From: an uncultured virus (IMG/VR IMGVR_UViG_3300047094_001965)
Lineage: Duplodnaviria; Heunggongvirae; Uroviricota; Caudoviricetes
Virus record (IMG/VR): IMGVR_UViG_3300047094_001965
Direction: 5' to 3' (one strand)
DNA length: 64,000 nucleotides
The translations under genes were made by a program, and so were the position numbers. Each line of letters opens with the position of its first letter. Position 1 is the first letter of the stretch. Under the pieces are notes generated by a model, which saw only the letters and a program-made list of their open reading frames with translations, was not told where the DNA came from and made no database searches. Below are positions 3,145 through 23,627 of the stretch, in pieces.

Positions 3145-3168
3145 TCCGTTCCCTACCCTATAAATCCC

Positions 3169-3198
3169 AGAAGGCCACCCCATAAAGGTGGCTTTTCT
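3169..3198 (+). terminator. intrinsic terminator
   Basis: AGAAGGCCACC-ccataaa-GGTGGCTTTTCT hairpin after the + operon. Confidence 0.65.
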
Positions 3199-3420
3199 CT
3201 TGGGTACCATGAAAATTGAAAGTTTGAGTTTCAGATTGCATGGTTATATGCAGTTTAGTATAGTTTATTGAAAGTTGCTACAACTATACGCGAACGGGTA
3301 TAACCTAACCCGCATTTTATTACACATTCGCCCCAAAATTGCCCTAATTCTGGGACACTGATACCGGAAAGTGCAGCATATTGCATTTTATCGTACCAAT
3401 AAATGTGTCAAACGGCGTGA

Positions 3421-3532
3421 CAAAATACCCCCCCTGTTTTGTCAAAGGGTTGGCACTATTCCCTATTTGCTGCCGAAAATTTGCTCACCTTATCAATTAG
3501 GCGAGCAAAATACCCCCACCGTTTTGTCAAAG
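3421..3532. repeat. 27-bp direct repeat x2 (25/27 identical, 85-bp period)
   Basis: CAAAATACCCCCCCTGTTTTGTCAAAG (3421-3447) and CAAAATACCCCCACCGTTTTGTCAAAG (3506-3532). Confidence 0.9.
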
Positions 3533-3571
3533 TGGTTATTCGGGAATCCCGAACACCCACTTTTGTATAAT

Positions 3572-3587
3572 AGTTCCACGTGAAACG
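3572..3587. promoter_or_regulatory. parS-like site
   Basis: aGTTCCACGTGAAACg versus consensus TGTTNCACGTGAAACA (14/16). Confidence 0.65.
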
Positions 3588-3644
3588 TGAATTAATTTGG
3601 CTATTGCGGCTAAATATATTAGCTTGGTGGGCTAAATGTGAATT

Positions 3645-4540: not shown

Positions 4541-5032
4541 ATGTCCAAATTAGCCGCATGGACGAATATATCCTCCAAAACCACATTTTTACGGCATTCC
4601 CTTAAATTAGCTATCTATTGCGGACGACTGGCAGACAGCAACCCCCAGTTAAAACACTTCAGCCTATTATCTGTATTCATCCTTTTTAGCATCTACAAAG
4701 ACAACCTAACCTCATTGCAGGCAATGCACGCAGTTTTGAAACGCTGGCATATGCACACCCATAAACAGACCATTGATAAGCATCTAACTATGTTTATTGC
4801 CGCAGGTTGGGTAACAAGATCAGGCACAAGATCAGAATTTCGCAGGTGGTATAGATACAGTATAACTGCCGAAGGTGTTCAGTTCTTAAAGGACATTGAT
4901 AGGGCTTGCCGTAGTTTAGTCATACCCAAATACAAAGACATCGTTAATACCCGAAGGTTGAGCCTTGCATATTACCACCGCAATAAAGATAAGATCAACG
5001 AAAAGAGACGCAAAAAGCCCCCAACCGGTTAA
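4541..5032 (+). CDS. putative winged-helix DNA-binding protein
   Basis: TIDKHLTMFIAAGWVTR...YRYSITAEG MarR/PadR-like pattern; basic C-terminal tail. Confidence 0.65.
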   Translation: MSKLAAWTNISSKTTFLRHSLKLAIYCGRLADSNPQLKHFSLLSVFILFSIYKDNLTSLQAMHAVLKRWHMHTHKQTIDKHLTMFIAAGWVTRSGTRSEFRRWYRYSITAEGVQFLKDIDRACRSLVIPKYKDIVNTRRLSLAYYHRNKDKINEKRRKKPPTG

Positions 5033-5103
5033 ACCTGGCCACATATACCGCTTATAATTGCTATTTACCGTTCATCATTTTATACGACCGCCTGTCCCAT
5101 AGA

Positions 5104-5136
5104 TTTGCTTTTAGGCGAATGGTTACACTATATTTG
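5104..5136 (+). promoter_or_regulatory. Bacteroidota sigma70 promoter for the early region
   Basis: -33 TTTG (5104-07), 21 nt, -7 TATATTTG (5129-36); -7 box flanked by inverted repeat GTTACAC/GTGTAAC. Confidence 0.8.
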
Positions 5137-5161
5137 TGTAACAGTTCGTTATTAATGTAGA

Positions 5162-5189
5162 ACGGAAGCCCAACCGTATAACATAGGGT
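5162..5189 (+). ncRNA. leader H-type pseudoknot, copy 1
   Basis: ACGG-aa-GCCC-aa-CCGT-ataacata-GGGT, 8 nt before ATG 5198. Confidence 0.8.
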
Positions 5190-5197
5190 AAAACATC

Positions 5198-5419
5198 ATG
5201 CCTACTTTCCAGATCAAATTAAACGAAGTTTTGGACATCGTTAGCGTTCCCGATCATGTTTTAGATTCTATGCGCGACTGGTTAAAAGACTGCGAATTCA
5301 GAGAGGGTTTTGATAGTCACATAGATGTTGAGGACGCAAGAGATATTGTTATAATTGCCGCAGTCAACCGCCATTATGATGGAGGATACAAGGCTTTTTT
5401 AAATGATTACTACTTATAA
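5198..5419 (+). CDS. small acidic early protein
   Basis: first ORF after the promoter and pseudoknot. Confidence 0.75.
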   Translation: MPTFQIKLNEVLDIVSVPDHVLDSMRDWLKDCEFREGFDSHIDVEDARDIVIIAAVNRHYDGGYKAFLNDYYL

Positions 5420-5429
5420 CCCCCCAGCC

Positions 5430-5633
5430 ATGCACAACTTTAATGTACTGATAACCGACACAGACGGACAATCGTCCACTAATGATGCCCTTAACCTTAT
5501 CCGTATCAATACCGCTATAGATGTTGATGGATTGACAAGGGAGGACATACACGCTATTTTGAGCCTTAAACACGGAGAAGAATATAATTTGCCCGTTCAC
5601 TTTGGGTTCCTTATTATCAAACGCATTGATTAA
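5430..5633 (+). CDS. small early protein
   Basis: ATG at 5430 after an AC-rich leader. Confidence 0.65.
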   Translation: MHNFNVLITDTDGQSSTNDALNLIRINTAIDVDGLTREDIHAILSLKHGEEYNLPVHFGFLIIKRID

Positions 5634-5645
5634 TTAACCATAACC

Positions 5646-5674
5646 CCAGCCGCCCCGCTGGCTAAATATAGGGT
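5646..5674 (+). ncRNA. leader pseudoknot, copy 2
   Basis: CCAG-cc-GCCC-cg-CTGG-ctaaatata-GGGT, 8 nt before ATG 5683. Confidence 0.8.
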
Positions 5675-5682
5675 AATACCGT

Positions 5683-5886
5683 ATGCAACACATTACAGCA
5701 CTTTCGCTTGTTTTAAACGTTCTATTGATCATCCATGCCATTGGCAACTATTGGGAACGCACCCGCGCCCACCGTCTTAAATTAGCTAACGATGCTAAAA
5801 GGAAGCAAGCCACAAGGCAGCACGTTAATGCTTGTATTCATGTTTCCGCGTCCGCTATGAGAAGATATAACACGTCTAACAATTAA
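5683..5886 (+). CDS. small protein with N-terminal hydrophobic helix
   Basis: ITALSLVLNVLLIIHAIG. Confidence 0.65.
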   Translation: MQHITALSLVLNVLLIIHAIGNYWERTRAHRLKLANDAKRKQATRQHVNACIHVSASAMRRYNTSNN

Positions 5887-5892
5887 TTATAC

Positions 5893-5923
5893 GGCGGGGA
5901 ACGGGTTTACCTTAGTACCCGCC
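5893..5923 (+). ncRNA. leader hairpin with bulged-G (loop E/sarcin-ricin-type) module
   Basis: GGCGGG-GAA-c-GGG-ttta-CCT-t-AGTA-CCCGCC, 14 nt before ATG 5938. Confidence 0.55.
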
Positions 5924-5937
5924 ATAAATCTACAATT

Positions 5938-6750
5938 ATGACACTTAACGAAATAATGACAGCAATACAGGCAGGACATAGGGTATATTGGAGCAATGGA
6001 GCATACGAAGTAAAGGCCATAGGGGACAATACGAACCCGCATAATTACAATATTGTTTGCTCTATTAATGGTTCCGTTATTGGGCTAACATGGACAGATG
6101 GTAAGACCTTGAACGGCAAAGAAGGTGATTTTTTCATTGTGGGAAAGGCCGAAAGGGTTAAATCCTATTTTTCGTTAGATGATGCTTTTTTGCCTGTTAT
6201 GGGATACCACGACCCTAAACAACGCTGGAACGGGTTCGCCTGCCCTGCGTTCCCTATGGAATCCGTAGAACTTATTTTGATGTACTTAGGGCAGCCCGAT
6301 ACAGACGAGGACGGATCATATTGGGAACTTGTTAACGGGGAATTATTTGAAGTTTATTATGAAGCAGGCAAAGAGCAAGAGAGGACCAAAGAGGAACCTA
6401 TTATTGTTGATGGTATCCCCTGTTATAATGTTGGGGCATTCAATTGGGTTTGGAGCGAAGATAAAAGGGTAATGGAGTCAAACACCTTGCCGGATGTATT
6501 ACATGAATACCATCATCATACGCGCATGGCTAATGCCGAAGGTAGGGACTGGCAAAATGTAGGCATACGCTGGGAGGATAACGCCCACGATGATGGCAGG
6601 GGTGAGGATGTTTACCATGTAGATATTGAGGAGACAGGGGAAAACGAGGATAGCGCACTTATTGAAACTATCCAGTATTACGACCATGCGATATTCTTAG
6701 CCGACATGAGATTTTTAAACCAATGGGAAGCCATTGTATCGGAAGCATAG
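5938..6750 (+). CDS. acidic multi-domain early protein
   Basis: 270-aa ORF; RWNGFACPAF and YNVGAFNWVW segments typical of phage early proteins. Confidence 0.8.
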   Translation: MTLNEIMTAIQAGHRVYWSNGAYEVKAIGDNTNPHNYNIVCSINGSVIGLTWTDGKTLNGKEGDFFIVGKAERVKSYFSLDDAFLPVMGYHDPKQRWNGFACPAFPMESVELILMYLGQPDTDEDGSYWELVNGELFEVYYEAGKEQERTKEEPIIVDGIPCYNVGAFNWVWSEDKRVMESNTLPDVLHEYHHHTRMANAEGRDWQNVGIRWEDNAHDDGRGEDVYHVDIEETGENEDSALIETIQYYDHAIFLADMRFLNQWEAIVSEA

Positions 6751-6803
6751 GTTAACTGAAGAAGGTTGAATACCTGAAATGGGGAGCAATCCCCATATTA
6801 ACC
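6750..6803 (+). ncRNA. type I hammerhead ribozyme
   Basis: stem I GGTTAA/TTAACC; core CTGAAGA; stem II AGGT-tgaat-ACCT; GAAA; stem III TGGGGA-gcaa-TCCCCA; cleavage triplet AUA (cut after 6797). Confidence 0.9.
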
Positions 6804-6807
6804 AATA

Positions 6808-6835
6808 ACCCACGCCCGAGGGTATAACAAAGGGT
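6808..6835 (+). ncRNA. leader pseudoknot, copy 3
   Basis: ACCC-ac-GCCC-ga-GGGT-ataacaaa-GGGT, 8 nt before ATG 6844. Confidence 0.8.
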
Positions 6836-6843
6836 AAAGCCGT

Positions 6844-7350
6844 ATGATAGAAATCAAAGATTATTCAACAGACGTTTTACAATGGGCTAATCAGGTCAAC
6901 GAGATCGTGCCCGTATATAAGACCCGCCCATTCAGGACAGTAAAAGACCTGCCAAAGATAGAAAGAGAGACGGACGCCGTCCGCATGGCATACGCCCATT
7001 TTTCTAACCTACTCATTGGGGAAGTAGAGTATTTTGGTGTATTCTTTTTGAACAAAGGGCAAAAGGTGATCGGGTTCCAGTTAATCAGCCAAGGCGGCAT
7101 ATCGGGAACCGTAGCAGACCCCCGCGTAATAATGAAAGCCGCGCTATTAGTTGGGGCGACTGGTTTAATACTGGTTCATAACCACCCCAGCGGGAATCTA
7201 AAGCCAAGCCACGCAGATAGCGAGATCACAATAAAAATAAGGGAGGGTTGCAGGTTCTTTGATATACAATTAGTTGACCACATTATTTTACCAGGCACAG
7301 ACACAGACGGCACACAATTTTATTCTTTCGCCGAAAACGGACTTATATAA
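6844..7350 (+). CDS. radC: RadC-like JAB domain protein
   Basis: E...FLN...ISQGGISGTVADPR...LVHNHPSGNLKPSHAD...LVDHII. Confidence 0.95.
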   Translation: MIEIKDYSTDVLQWANQVNEIVPVYKTRPFRTVKDLPKIERETDAVRMAYAHFSNLLIGEVEYFGVFFLNKGQKVIGFQLISQGGISGTVADPRVIMKAALLVGATGLILVHNHPSGNLKPSHADSEITIKIREGCRFFDIQLVDHIILPGTDTDGTQFYSFAENGLI

Positions 7351-7360
7351 CCATACAAAA

Positions 7361-7388
7361 CCGGATGCCCGACCGTCACAAATAGGGT
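7361..7388 (+). ncRNA. leader pseudoknot, copy 4
   Basis: cCGG-at-GCCC-ga-CCGt-cacaaata-GGGT, 8 nt before ATG 7397. Confidence 0.8.
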
Positions 7389-7396
7389 AATACATC

Positions 7397-8737
7397 ATGA
7401 GCAAAGCAATTCGCACAACGTACAGAAATCTTTCAGGTTGGGACTGGGTAGTAAGAACCGACAAGAACAGCAGAGGCCAAATCGAATGTAGGGCAGACGC
7501 GCAGAAGATCAGTAAACCGGATGAAAACGGCCTTATTATTTCTGAATGGGGCATGGATAACCCCGCGCTATTATTAGCCCGTTCAGAGGGAGTAATGAGA
7601 GCCACAGAAAAAACACTATTGGAATACCACAGGTTGGGCAAGGCCAAATTTGAAGCCATGAGGGACGCGGGAGAATTGCCCGTAAACGAGACAGCCACAC
7701 CCGAGGAAAACACTTTGCCTATGTATTGTAAATTAATCGCTTTTGGATATGGCAATAGGCAAATACCGTGCGCAATAGTTGGAACCCATACAAACGCATA
7801 CCACGGAAGGACAGAGTACAAAGTTTTGGTAATGGATGGTGAAAATGTTCTCATCCATAACGTGGAAACCATTAAACCCCTATCTAAAAAATTTGGCGTA
7901 GGTACCTATTATTTAGACAGCCGCGAGACATATACAGAAGCGGAAATTTTGCCGATCGTAGTAAAAGCAGAGCAATTAGCCATTATAAGGGAACGCCAAA
8001 AACAAGAAGCGGACCAAAAAGAGGCAGAAATAAAAGCCCTGGGTGCGCAGCTTTATGCGGAGAAGGTGCCAAGTTGGGCTAAGGCCGTAATCATTGCCGA
8101 ACTGATGATCGATAATAGCGACCCACACAGCGACTATTTCCACGCTTCAGGGGACAGGGACAAAACCTTTATTTTGGCGTTCTCTACCTACACCCAGAAC
8201 AATGAACAGGAACTAAGATCCGCAGCGCTGAATTTTGAAGGGACCGCAGACATGGCTAACCAGGACACCGGCGAATTGTACAAAGGGCATAGTGCATACG
8301 ATTACCGTTTACAAACATCGTGGAGAAGTGGCTACCACGTGCGCAAACTCAAAATAGAGGGTTCATACGATAAGGGTATTATTGCCAGGGCGTTAGCACT
8401 GGGAAATAACTTTGCCCCCATTAACGAGCCGCCACAAGGAACCACAGTACCAGCAGCCGCAAACGTTCGCATTATCCTGAATGAGAAGCAAGGAGGCGTT
8501 GAAATCCACTTCACAGGAAAGCCGGAGAAAAGTATTTTGTCAGAACTGAAGGCCAACGGGTGGAGATGGGCGAAATTCAATAAATGCTGGTATAAACGAG
8601 ATACACCAGCCGCCAGGCAATTTGCAAGCCAGTACGGCACAATAGCAGGAAGCCAGGGCGATCAGGATCCTGCAGCTGGGATGATCCAGGCCAATGAAGA
8701 TGCCTATTTCGATAATTGGGCAGCTAATAACCTTTAA
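7397..8737 (+). CDS. multi-domain early protein, polyvalent-protein-associated type
   Basis: C-terminal GVEIHFTGKP...LKANGWRW...CWY domain seen in DUF3560/LPD-type proteins; SDPHSDYF motif. Confidence 0.75.
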   Translation: MSKAIRTTYRNLSGWDWVVRTDKNSRGQIECRADAQKISKPDENGLIISEWGMDNPALLLARSEGVMRATEKTLLEYHRLGKAKFEAMRDAGELPVNETATPEENTLPMYCKLIAFGYGNRQIPCAIVGTHTNAYHGRTEYKVLVMDGENVLIHNVETIKPLSKKFGVGTYYLDSRETYTEAEILPIVVKAEQLAIIRERQKQEADQKEAEIKALGAQLYAEKVPSWAKAVIIAELMIDNSDPHSDYFHASGDRDKTFILAFSTYTQNNEQELRSAALNFEGTADMANQDTGELYKGHSAYDYRLQTSWRSGYHVRKLKIEGSYDKGIIARALALGNNFAPINEPPQGTTVPAAANVRIILNEKQGGVEIHFTGKPEKSILSELKANGWRWAKFNKCWYKRDTPAARQFASQYGTIAGSQGDQDPAAGMIQANEDAYFDNWAANNL

Positions 8738-8747
8738 CCATTAACCC

Positions 8748-8777
8748 AGGGAGCCGGATATAATTGTCCGGTTCCCT
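8748..8777 (+). other. strong intergenic hairpin (processing, stability or terminator element)
   Basis: AGGGAGCCGGATA-taat-TGTCCGGTTCCCT. Confidence 0.6.
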
Positions 8778-8793
8778 TCAAACTCCCCACAGT

Positions 8794-8979
8794 ATGAGCA
8801 AGCAAATTAAACCAGGGCAGACATGGTACCATAAAACCGCACACTTTGCCGTAAAGGTTGAAGCTGCCAATAAAAGAGAAGTATTGATTATGGATAAAGG
8901 ACTAAGCCACGCAGCTACAAAGGGCTGGCAGTTTATCGACCGTAAAGAATTTAAGAAGTATTACGAGCCGAACCAGTAA
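8794..8979 (+). CDS. small hypothetical protein
   Basis: MSKQIKPGQTWYHK...FKKYYEP, SH3-like pattern. Confidence 0.7.
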   Translation: MSKQIKPGQTWYHKTAHFAVKVEAANKREVLIMDKGLSHAATKGWQFIDRKEFKKYYEPNQ

Positions 8980-9041
8980 CACCCATTTAGCCACCTAAGC
9001 CAATTTAACTTAAATTAGTCAACTCAACAAAATTACAATTT

Positions 9042-9344
9042 ATGAAATGTCAAATCCAGGGCACAGCCCCCACAGTTTACCAGTTATCCAGTATTTCGCG
9101 TTTCGGAATACCCGTACAGAAAATGCCAGGCGGGGCCTTCCATTGCTGCAAAAGCTTTGAAACAAAGCGCGAAGCCATAGAACACATGTACAGCGCGGCA
9201 GATCGCTATTTTGAAGATGCCAAAGAACTCATGGAAGCCAGGCACGACATAAAGCACACCGGACTTTTAAAGATAGACGCAGCGCATTGTATTATCATAA
9301 CCAACCCGGACGACTTTCAGCCAGAAACGGTAAACAATTATTGA
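9042..9344 (+). CDS. hypothetical early protein
   Basis: co-oriented ORF with A-rich leader. Confidence 0.7.
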   Translation: MKCQIQGTAPTVYQLSSISRFGIPVQKMPGGAFHCCKSFETKREAIEHMYSAADRYFEDAKELMEARHDIKHTGLLKIDAAHCIIITNPDDFQPETVNNY

Positions 9345-9383
9345 TAATAGTTATATCTTTTTGTACAATTATTAACTAAATTT

Positions 9384-9415
9384 ATTGCCTATGTAATAAT
9401 ATTTACCTATTTTTA
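9384..9415 (+). promoter_or_regulatory. probable variant Bacteroidota promoter
   Basis: ATTG, 20 nt, TATTTTTA in an AT-rich gap just before pseudoknot copy 5. Confidence 0.45.
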
Positions 9416-9424
9416 TACAATCAA

Positions 9425-9448
9425 AAGGATGCCCAACCGTAAAAGGGT
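9425..9448 (+). ncRNA. leader pseudoknot, copy 5 (degenerate)
   Basis: AaGG-at-GCCC-aa-CCgT-aaaa-GGGT, 10 nt before ATG 9459. Confidence 0.7.
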
Positions 9449-9458
9449 AATACCAGTT

Positions 9459-10100
9459 ATGAACACATACAGAAAGTACATCCCCAATGTTTTTTTGGCC
9501 GAGTGCACAGAAAAGCACGAGAAAGGCGAGATCATTACAATGTCCACCAAATACGGACAGGAACACGAAGCCGAAGTACATAACCTCATTTTTGAGAAAA
9601 ACGGTATGTTTTACTATTCCGTTACCAGGGCAGACGGGACCAATACCCAGACATGGGCCCAGAAACGAGCGGAGAAGCTACAGGGATACGCAGGGAACGC
9701 GGAAAAGAGAGCCGACCAATACTATACAGCCAGCAACAAGGACAGCGAATTTTTAAGGCTGGGAGAGCCTATAAAGGTAGGCCACCACAGCGAACGCCGC
9801 CACCGTAAAATTGTAGAACAGGCCTGGAACAATACAGGTAAGATGGTAGGCGAAATGGAAAAGGCAGCAGAATACCAGAGCCGCGCGGCATACTGGGAAA
9901 GCAGGGCTAAGGATATCAATTTGTCCATGCCCGACAGTTTGGAGTATTACCAACACAAAATGGAAGAAGCTACCAGGTACCATGCAAGGATGAAAGCCGG
10001 AGAGATCCCGCAGGAGCATAGCTATTCCCTTACATATGCAAGGAAAGCAGTGAAGGAGCTGGAAGAAAAAGTAAAGTACGCTAAAAAGTTGTGGTCATGA
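9459..10100 (+). CDS. DUF3560-like protein
   Basis: LGEPIKVGHHSERRHRK signature; start reassigned to 9459 by leader motif spacing. Confidence 0.85.
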   Translation: MNTYRKYIPNVFLAECTEKHEKGEIITMSTKYGQEHEAEVHNLIFEKNGMFYYSVTRADGTNTQTWAQKRAEKLQGYAGNAEKRADQYYTASNKDSEFLRLGEPIKVGHHSERRHRKIVEQAWNNTGKMVGEMEKAAEYQSRAAYWESRAKDINLSMPDSLEYYQHKMEEATRYHARMKAGEIPQEHSYSLTYARKAVKELEEKVKYAKKLWS

Positions 10101-10510
10101 GCAAAACATTCAGAGTAACCAGGCAGGTTATTTACAGTCAAGAACTGGAAATCCAAGCTGAAACCGAAGATCAGGCCATTGAATTAGCAAAAACAACGTC
10201 TTACTCCACAGAGGATAAAACCTTTTTGGACACAGACTATTATGAGGCCGAAGAAATAGAAAAGGAGCCAGAAACCACCCCAGCCCCCAGCGATACCGTA
10301 AGATGCACAAATTGCAATTTTATAGGTGCGGAGAGTGAACTTGCATTTATTACGGCAGACGAGCAAGAGGATAAAGAACTAATCCTAAACTATGAAATAA
10401 CGGGCAAAGGGGTTACACATTGTAACCAGCAACCACAGGGCGCTAATGTTGTCCACTTCAACGGCTGCCCCAATTGTTTAACCGATGCCTATTTAATGGA
10501 CATTAAATAA
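10097..10510 (+). CDS. hypothetical protein with Zn ribbon
   Basis: IQAETEDQAIELA domain plus CTNC/CPNC. Confidence 0.75.
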   Translation: MSKTFRVTRQVIYSQELEIQAETEDQAIELAKTTSYSTEDKTFLDTDYYEAEEIEKEPETTPAPSDTVRCTNCNFIGAESELAFITADEQEDKELILNYEITGKGVTHCNQQPQGANVVHFNGCPNCLTDAYLMDIK

Positions 10511-10517
10511 CCCACCC

Positions 10518-10718
10518 ATGAGCTGCCAAAAAGTATATACCCTATTCGTATCGGAACACGGCCTCCCCACCATCGTAAGCCAATATAGCCTGGAATACCC
10601 TGATTTTATACAATGTGGAGCCTATAAGGTAGAAATGGAAGGCACATATAGGGAATGCCAAGATAGACACGATGAGATCCTTGAAACATTTATTCACGAC
10701 ACTATAAACGCTGAATGA
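10518..10718 (+). CDS. hypothetical protein
   Basis: operon ORF. Confidence 0.65.
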   Translation: MSCQKVYTLFVSEHGLPTIVSQYSLEYPDFIQCGAYKVEMEGTYRECQDRHDEILETFIHDTINAE

Positions 10719-10975
10719 CCATGGCTAAAACATTCTACCGCAGCAGCCTGCCGGAAGTGATCCGGTACAATAAAGGGGTGTATCTAAAAAATTCAGAATT
10801 AACCGAGGAAATGAGAAAACACCCCACCCTATTAGGGTTAAGGCCTGGATCACGTCCTTATGTGATCGTTTACGTCCTCAATCGTAGGTTGAGAGGGAAA
10901 ATAGACTTCCACGGGAAACCATACGAGCCAACCATGCACATATACAGCAAACAAAAGGAGGCCGCCAATGGGTAG
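10715..10975 (+). CDS. hypothetical protein
   Basis: ATGA overlap. Confidence 0.65.
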   Translation: MTMAKTFYRSSLPEVIRYNKGVYLKNSELTEEMRKHPTLLGLRPGSRPYVIVYVLNRRLRGKIDFHGKPYEPTMHIYSKQKEAANG

Positions 10976-11204
10976 ATACACCAAAGCAATGCATGAACAG
11001 CACCTCAACCAGTATTACAGCACAAAATACCAGGCTGGCCCCCTTAGTGAGATATGGAAGGAATTAGGGCGTAATACAACCCCTAAGGACCTTAGAACAG
11101 CATGGAGGCGAAACAGGTTAGGCCGGCTGATCAGGAGAACAAACCCGCAAGGGTTCAACAAATCTTACTTAACCCAAGATTTAAGGGAGGTAACCAATGG
11201 ATAA
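10968..11204 (+). CDS. hypothetical protein, paralog of 11197-11421
   Basis: MGRYTKAMHEQHLN versus MDKYTKKMHEEHLN. Confidence 0.75.
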   Translation: MGRYTKAMHEQHLNQYYSTKYQAGPLSEIWKELGRNTTPKDLRTAWRRNRLGRLIRRTNPQGFNKSYLTQDLREVTNG

Positions 11205-11421
11205 GTACACAAAAAAAATGCACGAAGAACATTTGAATAACTGGTATGCCGATTATTACGATGGACGCTTTGATAAACTGTACGAGGACTTTTCTTATTG
11301 CATGGGAAGAAGGGGATTATGGAAAGCATACCAAAACAGAGAAATAGGTACAGTTCTGAGGAATTACGACTATGAAACCTTCAACAAAACATATCAATCA
11401 AAATTGAAGGCACATGGATAG
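11197..11421 (+). CDS. hypothetical protein, paralog of 10968-11204
   Basis: shared N-terminus and FNK(S/T)Y motif. Confidence 0.75.
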   Translation: MDKYTKKMHEEHLNNWYADYYDGRFDKLYEDFSYCMGRRGLWKAYQNREIGTVLRNYDYETFNKTYQSKLKAHG

Positions 11422-11632
11422 AATACTCGTTAAGCCCCTGAACTCTAAAACCGCGTTCCATTACTTTGAGCCCGGCCACGAACACAACAACATGAAACGT
11501 GTGGACCGGATACGCAAGGAACTGGAAATGGCTAAAAGGCAGAAGAACGCTATCATCTACCTGCAGAGAGGACGCAAGGCAGTAGAGATAGCCAGGAATG
11601 TATCGTTAACTCAAAAAACTATGTTCAAATAA
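11414..11632 (+). CDS. hypothetical basic protein
   Basis: 8-nt overlap with the upstream gene. Confidence 0.65.
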   Translation: MDRILVKPLNSKTAFHYFEPGHEHNNMKRVDRIRKELEMAKRQKNAIIYLQRGRKAVEIARNVSLTQKTMFK

Positions 11633-11682
11633 CCCGTTCTTATATCCAACGTCCTTTTGGCACCTTTGATACCACTTACCCA

Positions 11683-11708
11683 GGGGAGTAGAAATACTCC
11701 CCACTTTT
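11683..11708 (+). terminator. GAAA-capped hairpin, possible terminator
   Basis: GGGGAGTA-gaaa-TACTCCCC-acTTTT. Confidence 0.55.
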
Positions 11709-11823
11709 GGCCCAAAAAAAATACCCCCGGCAACCACAGCCGAGGGCAAACCCTGAGAAATGAAAAACCACGTATGAAACACAAAGTTACATTTTATAAC
11801 CACTGAATAAAACAGTTTTATTT

Positions 11824-12564
11824 ATGACTACCGAGATCCTGAAAGAATGCACAGTAAAAGGGAATGCCGTAATGTTACCCGCCAGGCAATTAGACCGGAA
11901 AATCTACCAAGACGTTGCCAGTAAGCTGGAAGGCATTGGCGGCAAATGGAACAGAAAAGCCGGAGGTTTTATGTTTGACGAAAATCCTGCTGAACTTTTG
12001 GCAATAATCCAGACCGGCCAAACTTTGGACCTAAAAAAGGAATTCCAGTTTTTCCCCACCCCTCCCGATCTGGCATTGTGGGCAATGGGTATGCTGGCCT
12101 GCCAGGTAAGCGGTGAAGATACTATTCTGGAACCGAGCGCGGGACGTGGAGCCCTGATCAAGGCGTTCCGGCAGGTCCACAGTGTACATAATCCCATAGA
12201 TGCATACGAACTTATGCCGATCAATCAAAAGTTCCTGGAACAGATCCCCAATGTAAATGTGATCGGGGATGACTTCACCCAAGCTACAGGGATCGAGGGC
12301 AAATACGACCTGATTCTGGCCAATCCCCCGTTTACCGGAGGCCAAGACGTGGAGCACATTGAGAAAATGTATGCTGCCCTGAAAGAAGGTGGCACCATCC
12401 TCACCTTCTGTTCTACATCGTGGAGACATAACAGCCAGAAGCGATACGAGCGCTTTAGGGACCTTATCGACCAATGGAACGCAGAAACATACTTAGTTCC
12501 CAAAGGTGCCTTTAAATCGTCCGGGACCATGGTAGAAACCACTTTATTCATCATCGAAAAATAA
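11824..12564 (+). CDS. N6-adenine DNA methyltransferase (gamma-type)
   Basis: QFFPTP, ILEPSAGRG (motif I), ANPPF (motif IV). Confidence 0.9.
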   Translation: MTTEILKECTVKGNAVMLPARQLDRKIYQDVASKLEGIGGKWNRKAGGFMFDENPAELLAIIQTGQTLDLKKEFQFFPTPPDLALWAMGMLACQVSGEDTILEPSAGRGALIKAFRQVHSVHNPIDAYELMPINQKFLEQIPNVNVIGDDFTQATGIEGKYDLILANPPFTGGQDVEHIEKMYAALKEGGTILTFCSTSWRHNSQKRYERFRDLIDQWNAETYLVPKGAFKSSGTMVETTLFIIEK

Positions 12565-13350: not shown

Positions 13351-13445
13351 AAAACAATTTATTCAATAGTACCTTAGCTACATTATGTAACCAAACAACC
13401 CCCGCAGGAGGGTACCTATAGGGCCCTCCTTTTAAAACCACAACC

Positions 13446-13886
13446 ATGTCAAGAAAAAAATCCGATATAGACCAGTTCAACATTAAAGAGATCCCGTGCA
13501 GCTATTGCGGGAAGGACCGGCCAGTAGATCAATTCTACTTAAACAAGCTGGGATCATACGCGCCGTGGTGCCGCAAATGCTACAACGTGTACCAGAACTT
13601 CAACAAGAAACTGGATCCCCATCGTAGAAAGATGGACCGCTATAGAGTAGACATATGCAAGTCCAGGGCCGCTATTGTTCACCACCTGAAAAAAATCAAA
13701 CACCTTGAAAACTTGCTTGAAAGAGGGATGCAACAACAGAGTGTGGGGAAAAGGTTATTGCCAGTCCCATCAATACCTGAGGCCAGACTACAAACGGCCA
13801 CAGAGGAAACCATTCAGCGACAAGAGGACGGAGATCAACAAGGAGTATTATGCGCAGAGCAGGGAATTTATCAAAGAGCATCCTAA
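13446..13886 (+). CDS. Zn-finger protein
   Basis: CSYCGKDRPVDQFY...WCRKC; 3' end overlaps the next gene. Confidence 0.65.
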   Translation: MSRKKSDIDQFNIKEIPCSYCGKDRPVDQFYLNKLGSYAPWCRKCYNVYQNFNKKLDPHRRKMDRYRVDICKSRAAIVHHLKKIKHLENLLERGMQQQSVGKRLLPVPSIPEARLQTATEETIQRQEDGDQQGVLCAEQGIYQRAS

Positions 13887-16668: not shown

Positions 16669-17016
16669 ATGACCACACCACGTTTCTTCTTCTGCCAGAA
16701 CCCTGAGACATATCCTGATCAGGAACTTATCCTCTGTACCGAGGCCCCATATGCTGTAGCCAGGGTAATGCGATTCAAAAACGACTGGAAAGCCATGGAG
16801 TTTGAAGAAAAGCAGCAATACCCTTTGATGATCAAGATGGCTGAGTATAACATTTACTTCTGCCTGATGGGTAGCATTAAAGGATCTCGGTTATCTGTAG
16901 ATTCCAACTGGGAGGAAAAATACTTGGCCCTGCTTAATGAAATGATGGCGTTCTACCAGAAGAATAAGATCAAGGAGAACCCTTACCAGTTTAACAAATA
17001 CAAAATCAAGTTCTGA
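16669..17016 (+). CDS. hypothetical protein
   Basis: PRFFFCQNP...LILCTEAP; last + gene before the convergence point. Confidence 0.7.
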   Translation: MTTPRFFFCQNPETYPDQELILCTEAPYAVARVMRFKNDWKAMEFEEKQQYPLMIKMAEYNIYFCLMGSIKGSRLSVDSNWEEKYLALLNEMMAFYQKNKIKENPYQFNKYKIKF

Positions 17017-17711: not shown

Positions 17712-17939
17712 CTACGCTGTAGCTGCCTTAACAGCCCACATTGCAGCTTGTTCATAAGCGGTTTGCGCCAATGAAGCAAGCCTGGCGTCCTTAGATTTCA
17801 AGCCATCGCAAATGTTAATCAGTTCCGCAGACTTCTGCTTAATCTGATCAACCAGTGAATCATTGGAAGGATTGAAGGTTGTCCTAACTCTATGTTCACC
17901 AACAGAGCTTGTACCGGGAGATTGTGTTGTTTGATCCAT
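17712..17939 (-). CDS. Acb2/Tad1-like helical-hairpin protein (putative nucleotide-signal sponge)
   Basis: 75 aa; VDQIKQKSAELIN...RLASLAQTAYEQAAMWAVKAATA. Confidence 0.7.
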   Translation of the reverse strand: MDQTTQSPGTSSVGEHRVRTTFNPSNDSLVDQIKQKSAELINICDGLKSKDARLASLAQTAYEQAAMWAVKAATA

Positions 17940-17953
17940 AATTAAAAAATTTG

Positions 17954-18024
17954 TTGCGCAGCCCAGAATTGAACTGGGATTACAGGGTTATGAGTCCTGC
18001 GTTCTACCGTTAAACTACTGCGCG
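17954..18024 (-). tRNA. tRNA-Met(CAT), initiator-like
   Basis: cloverleaf; C1.A72 mismatch; CTCATAA loop. Confidence 0.9.
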
Positions 18025-18115
18025 ATATTGCCGGTCTTACCCGGCAGTAGTATGTGACCCACATACAGCGTAATTTCTACATACTGGATGTTTGCACTTT
18101 TATCGCTTATCCTTG

Positions 18116-18188
18116 CGGAATAACGTGGGATCGAACCACAATCTTCGGATTTTCAGTCCGCCGCATAGACCCTCCATGCTCTTATTCC
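18116..18188 (-). tRNA. tRNA-Phe(GAA)
   Basis: GGAATAA/TTATTCC acceptor; CTGAAAA loop; GTTCGA T-loop. Confidence 0.85.
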
Positions 18189-18192
18189 ATAG

Positions 18193-18263
18193 TCGCGTAG
18201 AAAAGGCTCGAACTTTTACTATTAGATTCAAAATCTAATGTGCTACCGTTACACCACTACGCA
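18193..18263 (-). tRNA. tRNA-Gln(TTG)
   Basis: TGCGTAG/CTACGCG; TTAGA-TTTTGAA-TCTAA. Confidence 0.9.
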
Positions 18264-18269
18264 TTATCG

Positions 18270-18340
18270 CACGCAAGGCAGGAATCGAACCCACACCAAC
18301 GGGTTTGGAATCCGTTGTTCTACCGTTAAACTACTCGCGC
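18270..18340 (-). tRNA. tRNA-Trp(CCA)
   Basis: GCGCGAG/CTTGCGT; TTCCAAA loop. Confidence 0.9.
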
Positions 18341-18350
18341 ATTACCAAAG

Positions 18351-18422
18351 AACCAGGTGTCTGGATCGAACAGACGTATAGCGGTTTTGCAGACCGCCGC
18401 GTTTCCACTTCGCCAACCTGGC
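18351..18422 (-). tRNA. tRNA-Cys(GCA)
   Basis: GCCAGGT/ACCTGGT; U73; GCGGT-CTGCAAA-ACCGC. Confidence 0.92.
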
Positions 18423-18424
18423 AT

Positions 18425-18631
18425 TTATAAAGCCAAAGTAGAATGCCTGAGCAATTCCGCTTCGATATCAAACTTGTTATAAAACCGCTTCGCCTTCTGG
18501 TTGATCTGGGTGTAGGCTATTTTCAGTTCCCCGCTGGCAACGTGCTTGCGTAGGATATCCCTGTCATCTATCCCCAGCATCTCTAATGCTTTGGCCTCCG
18601 GTATCCATTCAACTTTTAGCTTTGGAAGCAT
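18425..18631 (-). CDS. xis: excisionase-like (MerR/HTH_17-type) protein
   Basis: WIPEAKALEMLGI...RFYNKFDIE; adjacent to the integrase. Confidence 0.7.
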   Translation of the reverse strand: MLPKLKVEWIPEAKALEMLGIDDRDILRKHVASGELKIAYTQINQKAKRFYNKFDIEAELLRHSTLAL

Positions 18632-18752
18632 AAGGCTAAGTTACATATTGTGTCCCGAGTGAATAAAATATTTTATTCAGTACAGATACAGAATGTATCT
18701 TTATACCCTCATAAGCAGCATTTTTGAATTGGATTTTGATTTTGATTACACG

Positions 18753-18780
18753 AAAAGCCCTGTTTCTACGGGGCTTTTTT
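18753..18780. terminator. bidirectional terminator at the integrase 3' end
   Basis: AAAAGCCC-loop-GGGCTTTTTT. Confidence 0.75.
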
Positions 18781-19840
18781 ATTTGAACATCTTCTCATAC
18801 TCCCTATCGCTGGTAACGTCCACGATCTTGTAATACACCTGGCAGACCCTTACCGTTATCCCCATCAACCTGGCACAGGCCTCCAAGCTCATTACCCTTG
18901 CAGCGCGGACGCCGAAGGTGTGGCGGCTGATATGTGCGCTTAGGTTTTTATCGATGCCGGCGCCGGTAGCTATTTCCTTTAGAACTCGGTTAACGTGGGT
19001 ATTAGTGTAATGGCAGGGCTTGTATTCGATGTTCTCAAACAGCGAACGGACCTTATCAACCACCGGCATAGATACTACCTGTCCTGTTTTGGTAGTGTAG
19101 AGGACGAGGCGGCCACCGCGGATATGTGTCGCATGGTTGAATTGCTGCCAATCTGAGAACCTTAGGCCGATATAGCAGCCGAGAACAAACCACGAAGCAA
19201 TGAATCTAACCTCAGGGCTGGCAGCTGGGTTATACGCGACACTTTCCACCTTCACCAGTTCTTCTTCTTCCAAGTATTCACGGATGGGTGTTTTATACCT
19301 GGGCATGGGATAGGTAGCAAAGATGTATTCGCGGATCTTCTTTTCCTTAAAAGCACGCAGACAGATCATGCGGATAAACTTGAAAGACTTCCAGACCGTG
19401 TTAGATCCGTTGCCCATCTCCCGCATATGTTCTTCGTACCCCTGCAGCAGCTCAGTATCGATATCGGTAAGCAGGATGTCTCCGGCATAGTCCATAAACT
19501 TTTTACGCTCTGTAGCGATCTGCCTCATGGTTCCAGGTCGCTTAGACTTTTCCCAGCGCCGCATCAAGTCTTGCACATAGGCTGCAAAGGGAACCCTTTC
19601 ACTTTTTGCAACAGTTCCCTGCAATAGCTCTCCCTCGATCTGGTTGATTATAGCCCTGAGCCTTTCGTTATACGCTTTGGCCTGGGGATGATCTTTAACA
19701 CGGCCACTGGCAAACTGAGAAGGTGTAACCTTCATCATAGTTGTTCGGAATGTACGGACACCCTTATCTGCTATCCGTATGCAGATTTTGATGCGGCCCT
19801 GATCATCTTTTTTCCCTTTGAGTATAGCCGTTACTTTCAT
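18779..19840 (-). CDS. int: tyrosine integrase (Bacteroidota type, arm-binding N-terminus)
   Basis: GLRFSD, TTKTG, HISRHTFG, C-terminal Tyr (QVYYK). Confidence 0.93.
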   Translation of the reverse strand: MKVTAILKGKKDDQGRIKICIRIADKGVRTFRTTMMKVTPSQFASGRVKDHPQAKAYNERLRAIINQIEGELLQGTVAKSERVPFAAYVQDLMRRWEKSKRPGTMRQIATERKKFMDYAGDILLTDIDTELLQGYEEHMREMGNGSNTVWKSFKFIRMICLRAFKEKKIREYIFATYPMPRYKTPIREYLEEEELVKVESVAYNPAASPEVRFIASWFVLGCYIGLRFSDWQQFNHATHIRGGRLVLYTTKTGQVVSMPVVDKVRSLFENIEYKPCHYTNTHVNRVLKEIATGAGIDKNLSAHISRHTFGVRAARVMSLEACARLMGITVRVCQVYYKIVDVTSDREYEKMFK

Positions 19841-20405: not shown

Positions 20406-20891
20406 CTAAAACCCATTGCCTAATGAATAATGCCTTAACGTCTCCTGTTGTATCTTTTGCAATTCTACACGCAACGCTTCTGCCAGCCGCCTGGAAACAT
20501 CTTGCTCAGTCTGACTATTCACCTTCGCAGACACCCGAGACACCTCCACAAGACCAACCTTTGCATAAGCCTCCAACATTAAAAGCTTATCGCCAACCAA
20601 TTGTTCAAGATGACGGATCCGCACAAGTTGTGATTCAATAAGTTGGTCCTGTAAGTTTTGAATTTTACGGGTATTGTCTCTCTCCGAGATAAGGGGTACG
20701 ATCTCTCCACTGTCATTCAGGACAAGGTTATTGTCCCTGAGGTAAGAAACCAGGATGGATGAAGTGCGCGGCGTCAACTCATGCTTCCCAGATTCCAACT
20801 TTGCCACCATAGAACGCGAAATGTGTAATACTTCCGCCATCTCATCCTGGTTAAGCCCGAGATAGTCCCGGATTGTACGCAGGTTGATCAT
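20406..20891 (-). CDS. XRE-family immunity repressor
   Basis: LRTIRDYLGLNQDEMAEVLHISRSMVAKLESG; divergent from the Cro-like gene. Confidence 0.85.
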   Translation of the reverse strand: MINLRTIRDYLGLNQDEMAEVLHISRSMVAKLESGKHELTPRTSSILVSYLRDNNLVLNDSGEIVPLISERDNTRKIQNLQDQLIESQLVRIRHLEQLVGDKLLMLEAYAKVGLVEVSRVSAKVNSQTEQDVSRRLAEALRVELQKIQQETLRHYSLGNGF

Positions 20892-22364: not shown

Positions 22365-23627
22365 ATGAAGACGCTAAAAGACTTTACCCCCGAAATACAA
22401 GCCAAGATTCCAGAGTACCAAGCCAAAGCCTTAGATGGCGTAATGGATGGAAGAAGATACAGGGATTTCGATATTGAAAAAGCAAAGGCTGCCGTTTATC
22501 ACAACTACGAGGCTTGCGGGTATAAAAGGCCATTGGTGCTTTGGGTAGACAACCCATTGGAGCAACAGGTTATGTTTAACTATATCTGCGCTTTGTTTGG
22601 TGAAAATAAAGAGTTGCACAGCCAGTTGCACAGCCAGTTGCGCAGCCAGTTGCGCAGCCAGTTGCACAGCCAGTTGGACAGCCAGTTGCACAGCCAGTTG
22701 GACAGCCAGTTGCACAGCCAGTTGCACAGCCAGTTGCACAGCCAGTTGGACAGCCAGTTGCACAGCCAGTTGCACAGCCAGTTGCACAGCCAGTTGCGCA
22801 GCCAGTTGCGCAGCCAGTTGCGCAGCCAGTTGCACAGCCAGTTGGACAGCCAGTTGCACAGCCAGTTGGACAGCCAGTTGCACAGCCAGTTGGGAAAATA
22901 TAATTATAACTACTTATTCACACTAAACGTGTACAGCGATTGTTACTATACATGGTTCAACTTCATACACGAGCAGTTTCAACTGCCGATTGACGATAAA
23001 ACAAAGAATCTTTTTGACATAACATTCAAACTGCAAAGAGAATCTGGCCTTTATTCATGCATTTTTTCAGAGGCGGTTGCGGTGGTTTGCAAGTATCCAC
23101 AAAAAGTACATCAATCAGGGCCAGAGTACAACCTTCACAACTGCAATGGAAACGCAGTAGAATGGGGGCACTCTTTTATGCGTTTTGATTGCTGTTATGT
23201 AAATGGAAGGAATATCAGCAGTGAGCTTTTTGCAAAAATTGACACCATAACTTTTGACGAGTTTTTGAAGCTGAAAAACGAAGAAGATAAGGCTGCAATT
23301 ATCACAGTAAAAAAAGAAAGACACGGCAACAATCACGTACTTTTTTTCTTGGGTGCGAAAGTTGTAGACGAGCAAGAAATAGTACACGAAACGTCAAAAG
23401 AAATCCAAAGGCTTTACAAAACCAAGAAAAGGTTTGAGTGGGCAAATGACAGCAAGGGAAATAGTAATGTACAACTCGCCTGGAATGAAATGCAATGCCC
23501 ATCTACGGGACAGACTTACTTAATTGAAACCTGTCCAACGTTCAACAGTGTAGTGGAATCGGCTAAGTGGCTGAGGCCGTCATTTGTCCCTAATTCAGTA
23601 CCCTATCATTGGCAATCAGCAAACTAA
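22365..23627 (+). CDS. DUF6745-like protein with L[HRD]SQ tetrapeptide array
   Basis: WVDNP...repeat...LHNCNGNAVEW...MQCPSTGQTY. Confidence 0.8.
   Translation: MKTLKDFTPEIQAKIPEYQAKALDGVMDGRRYRDFDIEKAKAAVYHNYEACGYKRPLVLWVDNPLEQQVMFNYICALFGENKELHSQLHSQLRSQLRSQLHSQLDSQLHSQLDSQLHSQLHSQLHSQLDSQLHSQLHSQLHSQLRSQLRSQLRSQLHSQLDSQLHSQLDSQLHSQLGKYNYNYLFTLNVYSDCYYTWFNFIHEQFQLPIDDKTKNLFDITFKLQRESGLYSCIFSEAVAVVCKYPQKVHQSGPEYNLHNCNGNAVEWGHSFMRFDCCYVNGRNISSELFAKIDTITFDEFLKLKNEEDKAAIITVKKERHGNNHVLFFLGAKVVDEQEIVHETSKEIQRLYKTKKRFEWANDSKGNSNVQLAWNEMQCPSTGQTYLIETCPTFNSVVESAKWLRPSFVPNSVPYHWQSAN
22614..22889 (+). repeat. 12-bp tandem repeat x23
   Basis: TTG-[CAC/CGC/GAC]-AGC-CAG with no synonymous variation. Confidence 0.97.

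Follow-up and report, generated by a model that had tools for sequence, protein, structure and literature searches.

Several described systems resemble in part the subject of this study, a short leader element that stands five times, each time directly upstream of a start codon, in DNA from an uncultured virus of the Caudoviricetes (IMG/VR record IMGVR_UViG_3300047094_001965; the whole stretch of 64,000 nucleotides (nt) that was analysed is called the window). The element comprises a small hairpin (P1) with a GCCC loop and a downstream AGGGUAA that could pair with this loop (P2). Some of its likenesses come from phage T4. In the operator of T4 gp43, a small upstream hairpin with a conserved loop is read by the protein together with ribosome-site sequence (PMC3014915); here, too, a variable P1 stem carries an invariant GCCC loop, and an invariant AGGGUAA occupies -13 to -7 relative to the AUG (-15 to -9 in copy 5). 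A leader pseudoknot likewise controls initiation in T4 gene 32, but that knot lies 67 nt upstream whereas the present one would abut the start (PMC3014915), and the gp43 and gp32 operators are, as presented there, autogenous single sites, while the present element precedes five unrelated genes. T4 RegA is multi-gene as well, one repressor acting next to the AUG of about 30 early mRNAs (PMC3014915), but its sites are described there as unstructured and A+U-rich, so that an element able to fold, and carrying G/C boxes, is not of the RegA type. In further contrast to the T4 operators, no homologue of gp43, gp32 or RegA was seen here, and the host probably makes no use of Shine-Dalgarno (SD) sequences.

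PreQ1-I riboswitches accompany queuosine synthesis or transport genes. On paper, preQ1-I (RF00522) and SAM-II (RF00521, RF01726) are like the fold that the present element could adopt in their compact H-type topology, short P1, A-rich third loop and a P2 3' strand at the ribosome-binding position, but the element matches neither covariance model, has no link to queuosine or methionine genes, and its core is shorter. The radC motif (RF01754) and STAXI (RF01728) of Weinberg et al. 2010, both from Proteobacteria and Enterobacteria, are elements with a candidate structure that neighbour radC, anti-restriction and other genes for DNA handling on mobile elements (PMC2864571). However, the radC motif model has no match here and only one of the five copies precedes RadC; STAXI is a pseudoknot unit that occurs two or three times in tandem (PMC2864571), whereas the present copies are single, one per gene (484-2064 nt apart), at a fixed distance from the ATG. 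The PeSL cassettes of T4-like phages share the pattern of a short regulatory sequence repeated before variable accessory genes in a plastic region, but PeSL are composite terminator/promoter DNA long enough to recombine (PMC4122927), while the present element has no promoter consensus in three of five copies, a stem of 4 base pairs (bp), no U-tract and 11 invariant bases. Tenacibaculum phage Gundel_1 (L155) carries a repeat of its own, TTATTCGG..CG.TACCGACA (1290-1362 and 3285-3354), about 45 nt upstream of RadC and of another early gene, and its sequence is unlike that of the present element. No Rfam family matches the elements at the gathering score over the window or at E ≤ 10 over 5000-9600, with preQ1-I, SAM-II, the radC motif and STAXI all covered, and this agrees with the suggestion of the earlier note, made from the sequence alone, that the motif may be undescribed. 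A word search of the literature, which cannot search sequence, found no description of it. The element would resemble a translational operator or pseudoknot leader in its action, yet is a member of no catalogued family.

Layout of the five copies, pairing in P1 and a candidate P2

When the region 4800-9800 was read for elements, one layout was found to be shared by all copies: P1(4)-NN-GCCC-NN-P1'(4)-A-rich linker-AGGGTAA-6/8 nt-ATG, on the + strand, with the start codon directly 3' of each (Table 1). The distance from GGGT to ATG is 8, 8, 8, 8 and 10 nt in copies 1-5, that from the end of AGGGTAA to the first start codon of the open reading frame (ORF) is 6 nt in copies 1-4 and 8 nt in copy 5, and that from the hairpin to AGGG is 7, 8, 7, 7 and 3 nt. 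Positions, layout and GGGT-ATG distances had been listed in the earlier note, and all of them match the sequence; GCCC and AGGGTAA indeed have the same letters in 5/5 copies. A covariance model built from the five copies (R1) was run on both strands of the whole window with filters off, and scored them at 41.2-54.1 bits, the next best among the 19 matches listed reaching 9.6 bits. Because of this gap, the window contains exactly five copies, all on the + strand at 5.1-9.5 kilobases (kb), and the confinement to the early region that had been noticed before holds for the full 64 kb. The combination GCCC-N6-14-AGGGTAA occurs six times in the window against a shuffle mean of 0.35 (0/100 shuffles reach 6); the sixth occurrence, at 16744, lies within an ORF and is left unscored by the covariance model. 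AGGGTAA alone is unremarkable, with 15 occurrences against 8.9 expected and 4/100 shuffles reaching 15.

Anchored on GCCC, P1 forms 4, 4, 4, 3 and 3 of 4 pairs in copies 1-5, all Watson-Crick and 18/20 in total, whereas sliding either arm by 1-3 nt leaves 3-12/20. Among the 120 permutations of the 3' arms, 18 pairs are reached by only six, namely those that swap the three identical CCGT arms. Four such pairs surround only 7 of the 372 GCCC sites in the window, and none of the 120 listed full-pattern matches in bacterial genomes, which are unrelated, has all four (21, 43, 43, 13 and 0 of them with zero to four pairs). Compared with copy 1, copy 2 has compensatory changes at two positions, and copy 3 is compensatory at two positions as well; the arms of copies 2 and 3 are wholly different and still complementary, with double compensatory changes at 3/4 positions. 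A fifth P1 pair, C5650-G5657, is possible in copy 2. Copy 4 has an alternative pairing, A7360...T7376, with one bulged C, and copy 5 has an internal A-G mismatch, a linker of only 3 nt and an 8-nt spacer to the ATG.

Further evidence came from relatives of the phage, for which contigs of four public freshwater runs were compared with 4600-10100; the differences are known in part, and what follows applies to those listed. Run X10 contains an abundant relative whose sequence differs by about 8-10%. A G inserted behind 7374 in one contig of this relative (depth 39.3 of 142.2) makes the P1 of copy 4 a stem of 5 perfect pairs, ACCGG/CCGGT, while the spacer to the ATG becomes 1 nt longer and the motif is kept. 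Given the covarying arms and this insertion that perfects the stem of copy 4, P1 is, on comparative grounds, a real and selected helix. A stem whose sequence varies while its complementarity is kept also points to a nucleic-acid fold and not to a protein-binding DNA palindrome. The earlier statement that P1 changes sequence while keeping its pairing is thereby upheld.

The candidate P2 joins GCCC in the P1 loop to GGGU, one G-U pair included, and is identical in 5/5 copies. Together, P1 and P2 would make up an H-type pseudoknot with a 28-nt core at approximately -36 to -9 from the AUG. Its loops measure 2, 2 and 4-9 nt, with the A in front of GGGU included in the last, which is sterically acceptable for an H-type knot judged by known small pseudoknots. 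In copies 3, 4 and 5, P2 as a simple hairpin is the nested minimum-free-energy fold, and the pseudoknot, at a roughly estimated -4.4 to -7.7 kcal/mol, is on a level with the nested minimum of -4.6 to -7.9 kcal/mol. Copies 4 and 5, which have the weakest P1, can lengthen P2 to 5 bp (UGCCC/GGGUA). By these estimates, formation of P2 is plausible both sterically and energetically. Furthermore, behind 10087 an X10 contig has a loose end with the sequence ..ACCC-AC-GCCT-AA-GGGG.., likely a sixth copy in the relative, in which the C-to-U change in the loop (GCCU) could still pair with G by wobble.

In copies 4 and 5, the AU that precedes GCCC creates an upstream AUG (7365-7385 and 9429-9461, + strand), which is lacking in copies 1-3. 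In copy 4 it opens a 6-codon mini-ORF whose stop is the TAG within ATAGGGTAA, and that of copy 5 shares the frame of the DUF3560 gene, which it would lengthen by 10 codons.

Table 1. Positions in the window of the five elements, of promoter-like boxes and a hammerhead-like fold next to them, and of the genes that follow (aa, amino acids)
Feature	Position	Strand	Description
Element 1	5162..5200	+	ACGG-AA-GCCC-AA-CCGT-ATAACAT-AGGGTAA-AACATC-ATG; P1 5162-5165 (ACGG)/5174-5177 (CCGT), 4/4 pairs; GCCC 5168-5171; linker 5178-5184; AGGGTAA 5185-5191; ATG 5198; R1 54.1 bits
Element 2	5646..5685	+	CCAG-CC-GCCC-CG-CTGG-CTAAATAT-AGGGTAA-TACCGT-ATG; P1 5646-5649 (CCAG)/5658-5661 (CTGG), 4/4 pairs; GCCC 5652-5655; AGGGTAA 5670-5676; ATG 5683; R1 42.4 bits
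Element 3	6808..6846	+	ACCC-AC-GCCC-GA-GGGT-ATAACAA-AGGGTAA-AGCCGT-ATG; P1 6808-6811 (ACCC)/6820-6823 (GGGT), 4/4 pairs; GCCC 6814-6817; AGGGTAA 6831-6837; ATG 6844; R1 51.8 bits
Element 4	7361..7399	+	CCGG-AT-GCCC-GA-CCGT-CACAAAT-AGGGTAA-TACATC-ATG; P1 7361-7364 (CCGG)/7373-7376 (CCGT), 3/4 pairs; GCCC 7367-7370; AGGGTAA 7384-7390; ATG 7397; R1 51.5 bits
Element 5	9425..9461	+	AAGG-AT-GCCC-AA-CCGT-AAA-AGGGTAA-TACCAGTT-ATG; P1 9425-9428 (AAGG)/9437-9440 (CCGT), 3/4 pairs; GCCC 9431-9434; AGGGTAA 9444-9450; ATG 9459; R1 41.2 bits
Promoter-like boxes, Bacteroidota type, upstream of element 1	TTTG 5104-5107; TATATTTG 5129-5136	+	matches TANNTTTG
Promoter-like boxes upstream of element 5	9341-9369	+	TTGATA-17-TACAAT, TG before second box; motif evidence
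Second TTTTTATACAAT upstream of element 5	ends 9421	+	read from the sequence
Type-I hammerhead-like fold	6750..6803	+	immediately 5' of element 3, after the 270-aa gene and before the RadC leader; by descriptor, stem I 6750-6755/6798-6803, core CUGAAGA 6756-6762, stem II 6763-6775, GAA 6776-6778, stem III 6779-6796
73-aa ORF	5198-5419	+	behind element 1
67-aa ORF	start 5683	+	behind element 2
RadC-like JAB gene	6844-7350	+	behind element 3; PF04002, 1.4e-32
446-aa protein gene	start 7397	+	behind element 4; C-terminus matches pieces of larger phage proteins
DUF3560 gene	9459-10100	+	behind element 5; PF12083, 3.2e-42

A possible translational operator and the readings that compete with it

We tentatively favour the reading that the elements are a shared translational operator or gate at the RNA level, probably repressive and probably read by a protein. 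Set beside the three roles of the earlier note, a translational gate that a protein reads, or that folds on its own, fits best. One cis-acting RNA module would stand five times, in the leaders of accessory genes that are each initiated independently. In each, the P1 hairpin, of 4-5 bp and free sequence, would present the invariant GCCC in its loop, followed by the A-rich linker and the invariant AGGGUAA, and pairing of GCCC with GGGU would close the H-type pseudoknot. In Bacteroidia, start codons are selected through upstream adenines (-3, -6, -12 and -13) and low secondary structure, according to PMC9976891 and PMC13000457. Since -36 to -9 has to be A-rich and free of structure for initiation in such hosts, a structured block there should gate initiation: folded and containing G, it would hinder 30S binding unless opened. 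The module would thus gate translation initiation, mainly by restraint, and place five unrelated genes under one post-transcriptional control. The folded form would in turn most likely be read by a trans-acting factor, such as an RNA-binding protein or nuclease of phage or host, since 11 nucleotides are invariant where the 8 that would pair suffice for pairing. We infer P2 formation, the repressive effect and the existence of a trans-acting factor.

That the element acts in RNA is favoured, as far as sequence can tell, because of the variable yet complementary stem, the strict sense orientation, the fixed distance to the AUG, the G-U pair in P2 and the hammerhead-like cut before copy 3. This last fold (Table 1) has a complete core, with CUGAAGA, GAA and an A at position 17 (CUGANGA...GAA...H), and stems of 6, 4 and 7 bp with stem I open. 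It is the sole descriptor match in the window, its stem total is reached by 0/100 random Markov sequences, and its minimum-free-energy fold is a three-way junction of -18.6 kcal/mol (z -3.71; 0/200 shuffles as good). The predicted cut, after A6797, would leave a 5' end 10 nt before the P1 of element 3. The Rfam hammerhead models give no match, whether at the gathering score over the window, at E ≤ 10 over 4.6 kb, or over 141 nt, which is why we name the fold hammerhead-like. Because this upstream region must be transcribed from upstream, copy 3 would act within RNA. As for the other copies, promoter-like boxes stand upstream of copies 1 and 5, those of copy 1 matching the Bacteroidota promoter consensus; motif scans show none within copies 2-4, and a terminator scan of the window lists none of the five elements on the + strand. 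The earlier note had placed two copies behind promoters and one behind a ribozyme cut. Boxes do stand upstream of copies 1 and 5, but on motif evidence only, and the cut before copy 3 has the support of the descriptor but not of Rfam.

Several points weigh against a translational operator. The P2 pairing is invariant in the window and therefore shows no covariation, so that covariation bears out only half of what had been called a covarying H-type pseudoknot, namely the P1 hairpin. The GCCU variant is a single glimpse of 30 letters with its 3' partner outside the visible stretch. Nested folding of the leaders is ordinary (z -0.87 to +0.38, with 38-123/200 shuffles folding as well), as expected for so small a motif; the complete fold has 8 bp and is marginal by itself; and in the P1 of copy 5 no more than two pairs are contiguous. 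Whether the effect is repression or activation is judged from host biology, and the host is itself deduced. Moreover, all evidence comes from one phage lineage, with no independent family member found elsewhere, and no candidate for the trans-acting factor was identified. One ORF considered as a regulator (8794-8979, 61 aa) was set aside, as its Pfam CAT_RBD match reached 16.4 bits against a cut-off of 25 and a look-up in the ESM Atlas was unsupportive.

Could the element instead recruit ribosomes? A translation-enhancing module, in which the knot or AGGGUAA binds the 30S subunit (e.g. through bS1 or an rRNA segment), would suit the fixed distance to the AUG, and the genes are of a kind that a phage needs immediately after entry; in Gundel_1, a distant relative, RadC is the second gene after the terminal repeat. 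In our own alignment, GGGUAAU could pair 6/7 bases with the 16S 3' tail, for which we used the E. coli sequence. However, the anti-SD of Bacteroidia is sequestered, weak SD sequences are without effect, and only an extended SD works, on ribosomes free of bS21, as PMC9976891 reports; no bS21 gene appeared among the 76 window proteins in a Pfam scan. The remaining 70 genes work with plain A/C-rich leaders, and structure in the landing zone is expected to impede initiation. We therefore consider recruitment unlikely.

Slightly less likely is a role as RNA stabiliser or processing mark, in which a fold near the 5' end protects the cistron from 5'-dependent decay, or tags a nuclease cut that ends early expression. 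The box targeted by the T4 nuclease RegB is GGAG. Copies 1 and 5 behind promoter-like boxes, and copy 3 behind the hammerhead-like cut, sit where such a role would place them, plain hairpins stand 12-14 nt before the ATG in other gaps of the array (5893-5925 and 8746-8779), and RegB itself, which acts as a nuclease on a G-rich box of early leaders, is a precedent (PMC3014915). Against this, copies 2 and 4 are internal: they begin 13 and 11 nt past the stop codon of the gene before them and are not close to any predicted end. A stem of 4 bp would also do little as a barrier, and a decay barrier needs no strict spacing to the AUG. The X10 relative, furthermore, lacks the hammerhead stretch (loose ends at 6749 and 6796) yet retains copy 3.

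A site acting at the DNA level is slightly less probable again, whether as a hairpin promoter for an unidentified phage polymerase or sigma factor (N4-like, with its start at GGG), as an operator, or as a recombination site of the PeSL kind. Promoters of the N4 virion polymerase are hairpins with variable stems, and the region is plastic among the relatives, whose contigs skip gene-sized pieces near gene edges (5138-5429, 6153-8736 and 8797-8983). A regulatory sequence repeated at the fronts of cassettes is also the PeSL pattern (PMC4122927). However, promoter-like boxes already precede copies 1 and 5, the transcript that includes copy 3 has a ribozyme-like fold, and the varying distance between hairpin and AGGG would be ill tolerated by a promoter. 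The G-U pair of P2 is meaningful in RNA only, and the shared identity of 4+7 nt is far below what homologous recombination needs. No polymerase gene was seen in the window: a 2373-aa protein considered as a virion RNA polymerase was rejected, having no DFDxD motif and no Pfam or PHROG match. In the crAss-like phage phi14:2, early promoters have no common motif, according to 10.1101/2020.03.07.982082.

Finally, a small-molecule riboswitch, in which a ligand would stabilise P2 and hide the initiation region, has the preQ1-I/SAM-II topology on its side (short P1, A-rich third loop, P2 3' strand by the start) and a marginal stability that suits a ligand-dependent fold, but it is very improbable, and the least likely of the three roles proposed in the earlier note, as no Rfam riboswitch model matches even at E ≤ 10, the 28-nt core is below the smallest aptamer known to us (about 34 nt), the five genes have no common metabolic or transport theme, the 11 invariant nucleotides go beyond what pairing needs, and the P1 complement is absent among the 120 strict-pattern matches listed in bacterial genomes.

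Distribution, host and neighbouring genes

So far, the element appears in one phage lineage, with relatives only in public freshwater runs. In IMG/VR, the pattern GCCCRACCGT-N3-9-AGGGTAA gave 12 loci, and inspection by eye showed the element layout in none of them. The strict full pattern matched once in each of 14 loci, none being a copy; for a degenerate pattern of copy 3 there were 18 loci, without any model match at E ≤ 1, and a 20-letter piece taken from the sixth copy in the relative had no match. Protein anchors in the same database led no further: that of DUF3560 had no match, the 446-aa protein two distant C-terminal matches, the 270-aa protein a single N-terminal match of 47% in a record of 66 kb that lacks the element, and the terminase only a near-identical 19.6-kb fragment (G001), without the pattern and without the early region. 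The JGI metagenomes yielded 4 loci, the only close one being a 1.4-kb gene fragment without a leader, with model scores of at most 11 bits. For the strict pattern, GTDB returned at least 120 matches, and among those listed all are single, from mixed taxa, with 0 having 4 P1 pairs. No match was found in GenBank phages by blastn of 5000-12000. No copy outside this lineage thus turned up in IMG/VR, the JGI contigs or the 120 GTDB matches listed.

RadC and DUF3560 proteins occur in unrelated GenBank phages with other leaders, and the DUF3560 gene of another organism has a different, AT-rich upstream sequence (loose end at 9457). Because that gene carries another upstream sequence elsewhere, the leader, as judged from this comparison, belongs to the present phage lineage and does not travel with the genes. 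The gene context is as described in the earlier note, which named radC, a DUF3560-like gene, a polyvalent-type gene and two small genes: there are Pfam matches for RadC and DUF3560 (Table 1), the 446-aa gene and two small ORFs. The DUF3560 start is backed by an end-to-end match to phrog_17519 (residues 1-213 of 213). The five are accessory genes, probably for anti-defence. In the array at 5.1-10.1 kb, the remaining gaps hold plain hairpins or nothing. Strong intercistronic hairpins on the + strand lie at 5893-5925 (GGCGGG...CCCGCC) and 8746-8779 (GGGAGCCGGA...TCCGGTTCCC); they have no U-tract and stop 12-14 nt short of the ATGs of genes 5938 and 8794, which belong to the same array and lack the GCCC/AGGGTAA element.

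The window is part of a tailed phage, encoding a portal, a large terminase, a crAss-type muzzle protein (PF25731, 2e-09), an SU10-type capsid protein, an amidase, DnaB, an integrase, an Xre-type repressor and an Acb2/Tad1-like protein, as well as five tRNAs, and its DNA occurs in lake and freshwater metagenomes, with no RNA run listed among those that contain it. The phage looks temperate. On the - strand, 17712-19840 brings together the Acb2/Tad1-like hairpin-domain protein (PF24729, 2.3e-13), the five tRNA genes (17954-18422) and the adjoining tyrosine-integrase-like gene, and the Xre-type repressor (20406-20891) lies next to this group. The Acb2/Tad1-like protein might serve as a sponge for signalling nucleotides of immunity.

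Among GenBank phages, the nearest terminases (87 records, best identity 28.7%) are those of Flavobacterium (68), Cellulophaga (15), Tenacibaculum (2) and Maribacter (1) phages and of one unclassified record. The leaders of 75 window genes are A/C-rich and G-poor. An SD-like 4-mer is present in only 11/75, in line with the earlier proposal of an SD-blind host, and between -14 and -4 any one position has G in only 3-10/75 genes; at -12, -11 and -10 the elements account for five of these each. These terminases, and A/C-rich leaders without SD sequences, make it probable that the host belongs to the Bacteroidota and starts translation without the help of SD sequences. A generic leader, (T)TTAAA(A)CCACAACC-ATG, A/C-rich and without G, precedes many genes (21-50, 135-164, 13432-13461 and others) and looks like the default initiation context of the phage.

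Two further repeats were seen elsewhere in the window, both on the + strand. At 22564-22953, about 30 tandem 12-nt units within a 420-aa ORF (22365-23627) would give a long 4-residue protein repeat, and at 3421-3447 and 3506-3532 two 27-nt direct repeats, 93% alike and 85 nt apart, lie in the weakly coding 3145-3644.

What would a translational operator of this kind mean for such phages? At its boldest, and we regard this as improbable, the element at about 28 nt would be the smallest natural switchable pseudoknot yet seen, and part of a regulon that switches exchangeable anti-defence genes jointly in an SD-blind host, with a protein or a small signalling molecule, possibly from host immunity, as the trigger, and with the leader accompanying new gene cassettes as they spread through the phage population. 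Translation control in Bacteroidota phages is almost unknown, and their hosts pick starts via A-rich, unstructured leaders. If the operator reading is true, these phages would have a regulatory device of a new kind, a short and portable RNA module that joins several accessory or anti-defence genes unrelated to one another and is compact enough for structural work.

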